The translations under genes and the position numbers were made by a program. The notes under the pieces were generated by a model that was given only the letters and a program-made list of their open reading frames with translations, was not told the DNA's origin and made no database searches. Of a DNA stretch of 64,000 nucleotides, positions 53,497-54,383 are shown piece after piece. Where the stretch lies: the NCBI RefSeq assembly GCF_965641715.1, contig NZ_OZ282453.1, one strand, 5' to 3'. The DNA is from Escherichia coli (GTDB taxonomy: Bacteria; Pseudomonadota; Gammaproteobacteria; Enterobacterales; Enterobacteriaceae). How positions within the stretch are numbered: the stretch's first letter is position 1; every line of letters begins with the position of its first letter.

Positions 53497-53850
53497 TTGA
53501 TTGAGTGTTTGTTATACGGTCTAATGGTTTTTTCAGCATTAAATATTTATCATTCATATGGTGTGGGTAGAGTGAATATTGATGAGGCGTCGGGGTGTTT
53601 CATCCTTAGGCAGCGTATTGATATAGTCAATGCAGCACGAGCAAAGGCCTTCAGCCGTTTGACAGTTTTGTTCTGTGCTCCTGATCGTCTTTCGGGAAGA
53701 GACGTTATTATTCTGAATAGTGATGCTATACAGAGGGTTTGCGATGAGTTCATGGTTGCTAATTCAGAATTATTTGCTCTTGTTCAGGAGTACAACAGAA
53801 TAGCTAGGACCTGTGGTATGGATGAACTTCGGATTACTCATCTGGGGTAG
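53497..53850 (+). CDS. hypothetical protein (uncertain start)
   Basis: 117-aa six-frame ORF beginning at TTG, AT-rich, in the variable moron position downstream of Q/tRNAs; no clear RBS. Confidence 0.35.
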   Translation: MIECLLYGLMVFSALNIYHSYGVGRVNIDEASGCFILRQRIDIVNAARAKAFSRLTVLFCAPDRLSGRDVIILNSDAIQRVCDEFMVANSELFALVQEYNRIARTCGMDELRITHLG

Positions 53851-54383
53851 ATACATATCTGGATTATCACCTGTTACGGTAAAAAGTGATTGCTTACTGT
53901 TTTTGTGAATGGCATTGCAGCAGCCGGATAATGTCAGTGCTGGCTGACGGTGTGCTGGTGGCGGGTGTGGTGGTTGTTGCTTTCCCGTTGCTGAAAAAGA
54001 AAACGCCAGACTGTTAGCCGGGTATCAGTTAGCGGGAGAAATTTTTAAATACTTCACAATTCAGGCGGTTGACTGTTCTCTGGTTTGCGGGGAGTTTGTT
54101 AAAAGAAACTGGCATGGTGAATCCCCCTGTGCGGAGGGGCAATCAGCGAGTAGGTATATGGGATAATCGCGGATTCAGGTGCTGGTACTGAATTCACCGG
54201 GAGGCACCCGGCACCATGCACTTCAATAGATTCTCTCCACATTATGGATATTCTTTCAGAATATCCCACGCAGACTTTGTGTAAATGTTAACAAATGTGC
54301 GTTTTATTTGATCTGATTCGCTGTTTGAGCATCCAAAACAACGGTATATATAATCCTTTACTATATGACATATGTGAGGAAAA

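Follow-up and report, generated by a model that had tools for sequence, protein, structure and literature searches.

What, if anything, is encoded in the seemingly empty stretch between the tRNA genes and the lysis genes of this Escherichia coli prophage? The initial annotation of the window (the whole stretch of DNA that was analysed, 64,000 nt in length) had described an uncertain 117-aa ORF with a TTG start, followed by about 0.5 kb without convincing coding potential. The answer that we reach is that the interval very probably holds the modular cargo of a Q-dependent late operon, in which a small gene (orf92), a leftover of tciAB and an sRNA of the STnc100 class were joined by recombination. 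Every piece belongs to a known family (phrog_2873, Pfam DUF3927 and Rfam STnc100/EcOnc05), and the region is ordinary in this respect.

Setting of the interval

The interval belongs to the late region of a lambdoid E. coli prophage of the Qin type. Upstream of the interval lie rusA (51798-52154), the gene for the Q antiterminator (52169-52990), a pR'-like promoter with a strong terminator (53071-53097), a CAT-anticodon tRNA gene that PGAP calls tRNA-Ile (53134-53209) and a tRNA-Arg(TCT) gene (53310-53386). The interval under study (53497-54383) ends at a plus-strand gene for a TolA-like lipoprotein (54384-54812; Pfam PF06519 TolA C-terminal domain, 82.6 bits; lipobox IIGC), which is followed by a second gene for a lipoprotein with a TolA C-terminal domain (54963-55358). 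The lysis cassette is located further downstream and encodes the holin (about 55610-55825), a DUF1327 protein (55830-56141) and the lysozyme (56138-56671); the DUF2514 protein RzpQ is also among the lysis genes. The Qin-like markers in the window include DicF, a hok/sok locus and, beyond the lysis cassette, a csp gene.

The slot is positioned between the tRNAs (53134-53386) and the lysis cassette as the initial annotation had stated, and its description as a moron position is likewise confirmed. The window cargo sits at the place of stxAB in phage 75/02 Stx, of tciAB in JLK-2012 and of cspB/cspF in K-12 Qin. The GC-rich half and the AT-rich half that had been noticed are also real, as the GC content is 0.49-0.53 across 53900-54250 versus 0.35 across 54250-54400, with the shift near 54250. 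Of 5,426 complete E. coli genomes, about 1,180 carry the 1-kb sequence at 98-100% identity, as does phage mEp460_ev081. Given the catalogued modules and the published architecture of moron sites, we regard the interval with considerable confidence as a composite moron cargo region.

The 92-codon gene orf92

The ORF at 53497..53850 on the plus strand comprises 117 codons from a TTG start, exactly as first described, and the lack of a clear RBS is reflected in an anti-SD duplex of -0.4 kcal/mol at TTG 53497, which provides no usable SD. It matches phrog_2873 over the full length of the profile (E 2.2e-69; ORF residues 10-117 versus profile positions 1-108 of 108). PHROG families are built out of predicted proteins. 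Hence, we examined the evolutionary evidence for orf92 as well. The homologues in L005 (strain RM10042) and L006 (ETEC4079) show 67-71% DNA identity and contain exactly 92 open codons from a GTG that matches position 53572, with the same stop codon and zero indels. The differences at codon positions 1, 2 and 3 amount to 20-25, 18-23 and 40-44, respectively, and dN/dS is 0.25-0.27 (Nei-Gojobori, versus L005 and L006). In the other frames of the region, pS is about equal to pN, save for the antisense frame with the common wobble position, which gives similar pS/pN values to orf92. A selection signal in a wobble-sharing antisense frame is a known artefact, and this frame is not open in all three sequences. 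Because of the similar values, the assignment of the coding strand rests on the integrity of the ORF and on remote homologues. An exhaustive HMMER search returned 19 relatives with lengths of 91-95 aa and identities down to 34%, which have the motifs ER-x-AFS-x-L-x-V and AN-x-EL-x-LV-x-EYN in common.

The start of the gene differs from the one first proposed. The N-termini of the remote homologues (34-43% identity) align at or near the GTG, not at the upstream TTG/ATG. In a natural variant (L012), a 2-nt deletion at 53528 breaks the 117- and 108-codon versions and spares the 92-codon ORF. The sequence upstream of the L006 homologue is unrelated to that of the window; in one diverged homologue (P0019), the extension upstream of the GTG is open and 54% similar. 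At GTG 53572, the anti-SD duplex reaches -3.8 kcal/mol, which is a weak SD, yet stronger than at the other candidate starts. The homologue N-termini, the intact length and the L012 deletion together make a 92-aa product from GTG 53572 the best model. Thus, orf92 most likely occupies 53572..53850 (+), judging from these sequence comparisons, and TTG 53497 and ATG 53524 are probably not used as starts. The upstream extension (53497..53571, +) is probably an untranslated leader or promoter region of orf92. The 16 N-terminal residues in the phrog_2873 profile itself are probably not translated either.

The AlphaFold (AF2) model of orf92 has a pLDDT of 90 and consists of a helix (3-35), a beta-hairpin (39-46) and a second helix (50-81). 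A Foldseek search with this model against PDB and BFVD returned generic coiled-coil hairpins only, with E values of at least 0.03. The prefoldin beta subunit (PDB 2zdi, 1fxk) has the same topology as the predicted helix/beta-hairpin/helix, with a TM score of about 0.7, but the E value is 0.03 or worse, the identity is 10-17% and the rmsd is >8 Å. The likeness is that of a generic coiled-coil hairpin and provides no support for a chaperone role or shared ancestry. Neither the single orf92 sequence nor an 8-member alignment matched any entry in Pfam, NCBIfam, PADLOC or the PDB sequences. As the coiled-coil hairpin is without enzyme-like features, the model suggests that orf92 is a small cytoplasmic cargo protein, which would act by binding another protein.

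In the L008 prophage, a 38%-identical orf92 homologue is located between the Q/tRNA region and tciA-tciB-holin, and the L017 homologue is likewise found downstream of Q. Remote homologues occur near pilus operons and virulence regulators, and regulators of the AraC, GerE and PapB types are among their neighbours. This neighbourhood prompted us to consider orf92 as a PerC/Pch-type regulator, an assignment that was dropped since Pfam support is absent. A less likely reading is that orf92 encodes a small protein that binds a regulator and, though common in E. coli, has gone unrecognised and is absent from RefSeq annotation.

Could the 117-aa ORF, or its 92-aa core, be a chance ORF in the non-coding leader of the late transcript? 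Its TTG or GTG start, the weak SD and the lack of a Pfam, NCBIfam or PDB match would agree with this, as would the state of annotation. PGAP calls no gene at the orf92 locus in any of the 36 near-identical RefSeq genomes sampled. The record of mEp460_ev081, the only one found by tblastn of the orf92 protein against the phage collection, has no orf92 call and shows a small minus-strand ORF upstream instead. We nevertheless consider a chance ORF very improbable. The open length is identical in homologues that have diverged to 67-71% nucleotide identity, dN/dS is about 0.25, and the motifs are conserved in protein relatives from other prophages and loci. The predicted fold is confident, and PGAP does annotate the ETEC4079 homologue (WP_001017777.1). 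By this comparative evidence, orf92 is a genuine protein-coding gene under purifying selection. The uncertainty first attached to the ORF hence does not apply to the gene itself (dN/dS and homologues make it firm), but it was justified for the start, where GTG 53572 is likelier than TTG.

The tciA-tciB remnant and the STnc100 unit

Within the 533 bp of 53851..54383, no long ORF had been seen, and indeed the longest ORFs measure 43 and 40 aa on the plus strand and 56 and 67 aa on the minus strand. The conclusion that this stretch is without convincing coding potential fails at 53886-54017, which encodes a DUF3927 protein. The three possibilities that the initial annotation had offered for it each contained some truth: the decayed gene corresponds to a tciA 3' remnant with a rearranged tciB 5' end, the regulatory RNA to a member of the STnc100 family, and the unannotated small protein to the DUF3927 ORF, for which the word unannotated is wrong since PGAP does annotate it.

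The tciA 3' remnant (53851..53885, +) derives from a TerB-like moron gene, of which the rest is deleted; its sequence agrees at 24 of 28 bases with the final tciA codons of JLK-2012 and the tciA/tciB overlap. The ancestral GTG start of tciB is GTT in the window. The DUF3927/TciB-like ORF (53886..54017, +; 43 aa; PGAP WP_000562553.1) uses another GTG. It matches Pfam PF13064 with 95.6 bits (threshold 25; E 1.7e-27; profile positions 7-53 of 53) and phrog_1470 'TciB-like' with an E value of 7.8e-13. In comparison with tciB of JLK-2012, the start is mutated, 20 nt of the 5' part (11+4+5 nt) are deleted, and the first hydrophobic segment, RLAVVALLLFLVV, is lost and replaced by IAYCFCEWHC. The two are collinear between 53918 and the stop codon (54017), and the second hydrophobic segment and KKK are retained. 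The window holds no full-length TciB with a start overlapping the upstream tciA stop, and profile positions 1-6 are missing.

According to the course of events that we propose, the tciA-tciB cassette downstream of orf92 would have lost tciA save for about 35 nt, and tciB would have been kept with a new GTG. As the translationally coupled upstream partner is gone, the remaining ORF, whose SD is weak (-3.0 kcal/mol), is probably poorly expressed or decaying. From its sequence, we take it to be a remodelled and possibly decaying tciB allele. The polymorphisms seen in it (2 synonymous and 2 non-synonymous) are too few to tell decay from function. The allele may instead be a normal functional variant, since it is widespread and has a very high Pfam score. 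In the literature on DUF3927, TciB, YlcG and prophage TolA-domain lipoproteins, we found nothing useful.

The initial annotation had pointed out that virulence and defence morons occupy this position in related phages; no such gene was found in the slot here. The slot is equivalent to that of stxAB, the PHROG label on TciB reads 'inhibition of cell division or resistance to colicin', the adjoining TolA-domain lipoproteins could be colicin or phage decoys, and the regulator- and pilus-linked homologues of orf92 are described above. All this might suggest a hidden Stx-like virulence or anti-phage defence function in orf92 and/or the DUF3927 protein. Such a function is unlikely, because neither protein has PADLOC, Pfam or toxin homology of this kind, the fold search led to generic coiled coils, and the labels are annotation transfers, not tests.

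Downstream of the DUF3927 ORF, the covariance model of Rfam RF02076 (STnc100) matches 54083..54273 (+) over model positions 1-206 with 114 bits, versus a gathering score of 47 (E 1.5e-25). The conserved 5' flank of this STnc100/EcOnc05 unit (54042..54111, +) has one mismatch to Sakai Sp4 from 54042 on and contains an invariant TTGTTAAAAGAAAC tract (A-R-N-like). The box TTAAATACNTCNCAATTCAG is common to JLK-2012 and 75/02 Stx, whichever gene precedes, and TTGTTAAAA is invariant or nearly so across 12 STnc100 copies. The core (54112..54220, +; 109 nt) is formed by an 8-bp closing helix that encloses the hairpin P1 (CCCCU/AGGGG), a variable hairpin, P3 (GGAUUCAG/CUGAAUUC) and P4 (CCGGG-AGGCA-CCCGG). 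In the fold of the 12 copies, 96.8% of the cells are paired, and the window copy folds alike. Compensatory changes were observed in 8 of 26 pairs versus 1.7 ± 1.2 in shuffled alignments (none of 500 shuffles reached 8), and slid controls gave 0-3 pairs. The covariation, a signal read from the alignment, supports selection on the RNA structure of STnc100. The promoter candidates for this unit, namely TTGACT at 54069-54074, the extended -10-like TGTTAAAAG and CACAAT at 54055-54060, were rejected because each either lacks conservation or is incompatible with the RNA sizes in the literature (about 177-247 nt).

Could the GC-rich half encode a protein instead, either in one of its 25-40-aa plus-strand ORFs or in the minus-strand pseudogene called by PGAP? 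A partial CDS is indeed called there in many genomes, and RIBOseq footprints were reported on some STnc100 copies of EDL933 (PMC5331693). We hold a protein to be extremely unlikely, since the compensatory base-pair changes indicate selection on the RNA structure and neither ORF has an SD or a family match. Across the 12 copies, no conserved ORF extends over the core. Conservation of the peptide from the common ATG is confined to the invariant hairpin (MVNPPxRRG), past which the peptide diverges in sequence, frame and length (10-75 aa). This ATG contributes to the closing helix, and in the one copy that reads ATA instead, a second change in the helix compensates for it. A small protein encoded in the core was rejected for this divergence. 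As no ORF is conserved in the core, the overlapping minus-strand pseudogene of PGAP (a 'hypothetical protein' at about 54102-54242, called in many genomes) is probably an artefact.

The family is known from several studies. EcOnc05 measures about 222 nt on Northern blots and crosslinks to Hfq, as seen from its peak in Hfq-CRAC (Tree et al. 2014, PMC4104026). At least 8 Sakai prophages carry convergent dyads of Hfq-bound sRNAs with AgvB/AsxR-type anti-sRNAs, located downstream of pR' and ahead of the lysis genes (PMC4104026, PMC7873438). In EDL933, 11 STnc100 copies are transcribed, one of which (STnc100_4) was confirmed by Northern blot (PMC5331693). A copy is located downstream of stx2B (PMC12370729, PMC12711010), and the family is related to PasD (bioRxiv 10.64898/2026.05.13.724894).

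The altered 3' end and comparison with known systems

The window resembles E. coli 042, clone D i14, FDAARGOS_401, Sakai Sp4 and JLK-2012 only as far as 54219/54220, which is the end of the closing helix. From there on, a lineage-specific tail (54221..54273, +) replaces the canonical STnc100 tail with its Rho-independent terminator. In E. coli 042, clone D i14 and FDAARGOS_401, the iraM gene follows STnc100. The canonical terminator, GCCCCTC-loop-GAGGGGC-T(n), ends 10 of the 12 compared copies, not that of the window; E. coli 042-type and Sakai-type terminators read GCCCCTC-TCCG-GAGGGGC-T(n). The window has an A+U-rich hairpin (54246-54266) without a U-tract, followed by CACGCAG, and hence no Rho-independent terminator with a U-tract at model positions of about 170-206. 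A terminator-like site is also absent from 54221-54383, before the first tolA-like gene. An AgvB/AsxR partner (RF02702/RF02703) was not detected at E ≤ 1 on either strand of 52900-55600; as a positive control, the AgvB match at L004 3166-3225(-), beside STnc100 in phage 75/02 Stx, was found. The region's best promoter match is a sigma-70-like site (54325..54354, +; TTGAGC-18-TATAAT, 10/12), which is a consensus match only and lies in the AT-rich half about 30 bp upstream of the tolA-like gene. A GAGGA Shine-Dalgarno sequence (-5.6 kcal/mol) and ATG 54384 follow downstream of it. The region upstream of the tolA-like genes in the window shows no similarity to the tolA-like gene of L005.

As far as the alignments tell, the 3' end of the sRNA unit is exchanged together with the downstream cargo. 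STnc100-class members are normally convergent to an AgvB/AsxR-type anti-sRNA with the terminator region in common. In the proposed explanation, recombination at 54220 would have swapped the STnc100 tail for the promoter region of the two TolA-domain lipoprotein genes. The exchanged 3' end and the absence of a terminator before the tolA-like gene suggest that the core is made as part of a longer RNA. It would be transcribed without a terminator of its own, either within the late transcript or with read-through into the tolA-like genes. If the window copy still acts in trans, it would have to be released by processing, and base pairing would then occur via the unpaired and variable segment 54136-54170 plus the A-rich Hfq-type tract. 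The comparisons demonstrate the anatomy of the interval, the homologies, the selection on orf92, the RNA covariation and the breakpoints, and from these we infer the expression and Hfq binding of this copy, its targets and the functions of the proteins.

The loss of the terminator may have inactivated the window copy. The copy would in this case be a dead relic that yields no stable sRNA and is conserved only through recent recombination, which we judge to be doubtful, if well worth weighing. Both the canonical terminator, the usual Hfq-binding 3' end, and the convergent partner are absent, no terminator-like site precedes the tolA-like gene, and a nearly invariant 3' flank (at least 99% in 752 of 787 genomes) points to a lineage of recent origin. 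Against a relic, the intact core has the same sequence as copies that are expressed, the tolA-linked arrangement occurs in about 787 genomes from many hosts, and structured cores can be stabilised or freed by processing.

The edges of the core deserve a remark of their own. Two STnc100 hairpins are invariant, and 4-5 copies form tandem arrays in both L005 and L007. Similarity ends near the core edges in every compared lineage; it does so at both of them (54112 and 54220) for the Shigella Stx phages and at the 3' one (54219/54220) for the E. coli and JLK-2012 copies. The invariant hairpins, the tandem arrays and the breakpoints at the edges fit with the core as shared homology for cassette exchange. 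The core might on these grounds be read as a modular RNA that marks the borders of cargo cassettes and was captured here as the 5' leader of a TolA-decoy operon, with orf92 separately binding a regulator, a reading to which we give little credence. On this same reading, the core would possibly also be a processing or insulator signal.

With modular late-operon cargo as the preferred reading, the content of a seemingly empty stretch that about one in five complete E. coli genomes carries is settled. The gene model of a conserved 92-codon gene that is systematically left out of RefSeq annotation is corrected, and a recurrent minus-strand 'pseudogene' call probably overlies an sRNA. The natural EcOnc05/STnc100 variant without a terminator and convergent partner could offer a test of which parts are needed for stability and Hfq binding. 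The current understanding of lambdoid cargo regions is unchanged by the contents of the slot.

Among known systems, EcOnc05 of prophage Sp4 in E. coli O157:H7 Sakai has one mismatch to the window over 54042-54219 and an identical 109-nt core, and its Northern probe (PMC4104026) matches 54141-54175 exactly. In Sp4, it is encoded on the same strand as the late operon and likewise downstream of the ileZ/arg tRNAs. There, the unit follows directly after the tRNAs and ends in the canonical GCCCCTC...GAGGGGC-T terminator with a convergent sRNA facing it, whereas the window carries orf92 and the tciB remnant upstream and the tolA-like promoter region from 54221.

In the suggested comparison with Stx phages and K-12 Qin, the slot is equivalent. 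The window matches the STnc100 copy that follows stxB in two Shigella phages, 7888 and 75/02 Stx, at 100% over 109 bp (54112-54220). In Stx2 phages, the EcOnc27/sRNA103-AsxR dyad is located downstream of stx2B; the STnc100 unit of the window likewise lies 3' of the cargo, within the slot that extends from pR' to the lysis genes. Upstream of STnc100, the Stx phages carry stxAB as cargo and the window carries orf92 and the tciB remnant. The AgvB-family match convergent to the unit and the terminator are present in 75/02 Stx, and both are absent in the window.

In JLK-2012, the C-terminal two thirds of TciB, the stop codon and the STnc100 unit are collinear with the window (93% over 53918-54219). 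The L008 prophage has the intact order of an orf92-like gene (orf95), tciA and tciB, whereas tciA of the window is cut to about 35 nt. K-12 Qin (ydfU-quuQ ... essQ-ydfR-rrrQ-rzpQ-cspI) has the same backbone genes in the same order as the window. From Q to the holin, it carries cspB/cspF along with ynfS and ynfU, and its slot is annotated without the tRNAs, orf92, DUF3927 and tolA-like genes of the window. With STnc100 taken as the anchor, orf92 and the tciB remnant stand where 75/02 Stx has stxAB or JLK-2012 has tciAB, and the tolA-like genes correspond in position to the nanS-p esterase.

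Genes downstream of the STnc100 core

In E. coli 042, clone D i14 and FDAARGOS_401 (loci L013-L015, 1559-1841), the tRNA-orf92-DUF3927-STnc100 module is arranged as in the window and is followed by iraM, which encodes an anti-adapter, on the opposite strand. In the window, tolA-like genes are located 3' of STnc100 instead. As iraM in one case and tolA-like genes in the other follow a common module, the comparison shows that the cargo is swapped immediately 3' of the sRNA core.

The tolA-like genes are a tandem pair directly 5' of the holin gene, at 54384-54812 (lipobox IIGC) and 54963-55358 (lipobox VAGC). 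Both lipoproteins consist of barely more than one TolA C-terminal domain (PF06519; 82.6 and 54.6 bits, respectively). The first gene is labelled a truncated tolA pseudogene by PGAP in the identical genome. With a promoter-like site at 54325-54354 and a terminator at 55484-55501, the pair appears to form a separate transcription unit. The products could serve as putative periplasmic decoys against colicins or the g3p of Ff phages.

On the minus strand, antisense to the STnc100 core, PGAP calls a partial "hypothetical protein" pseudogene (54102-54242) in the identical genome and several others. This call is probably a recurrent annotation artefact because it is without family support and overlies an RNA that shows covariation.

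STnc100 arrays and remote orf92 homologues

STnc100 units were also found as tandem arrays. In E. coli O43 RM10042 (L005, 1168-1380 and 3139-4118), four successive copies are spaced by about 260 bp, with an orf92 homologue on one side and a nanS-p-like esterase on the other. All four are individually equipped with a terminator, and the variable hairpin differs from copy to copy. The array of locus L007 (1696-4658) holds five copies, one of which abuts IS200 (STnc490 match) and another a group II intron fragment.

Remote orf92 homologues (L005, 1757-2482; L011, 1244-1525; L018, 2507-2788; L019, 1-3914) adjoin genes for transcriptional regulators of the AraC-like, GerE/LuxR-like and PapB types, and a bfp-like type IV pilus operon is also found on their 5' side. 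Such neighbours hint at an accessory regulatory role within horizontally acquired loci. The weakest homologue was protein P0030 (E 1e-4).

Leader region and accessory RNAs

Directly 3' of the late antiterminator gene Q, the region 52996-53097 contains a pR'-like promoter (TTGATT-16-TAAATT) and, about 45 nt past it, a strong terminator (53071-53097). Together, they would yield a short leader RNA, by analogy with lambda 6S RNA or StxS. Rfam gave only weak matches here (Trp_leader, 25.6 bits; isrK, 18.1 bits).

Further Rfam matches are DicF (43414-43465, minus strand), the sok antitoxin RNA of a hok/sok-type locus (49597-49771, plus strand) and a cspA-type thermoregulator 3' of the lysis cassette (57371-57787, plus strand). 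K-12 Qin carries the same accessory RNAs, and this common set confirms the prophage type.
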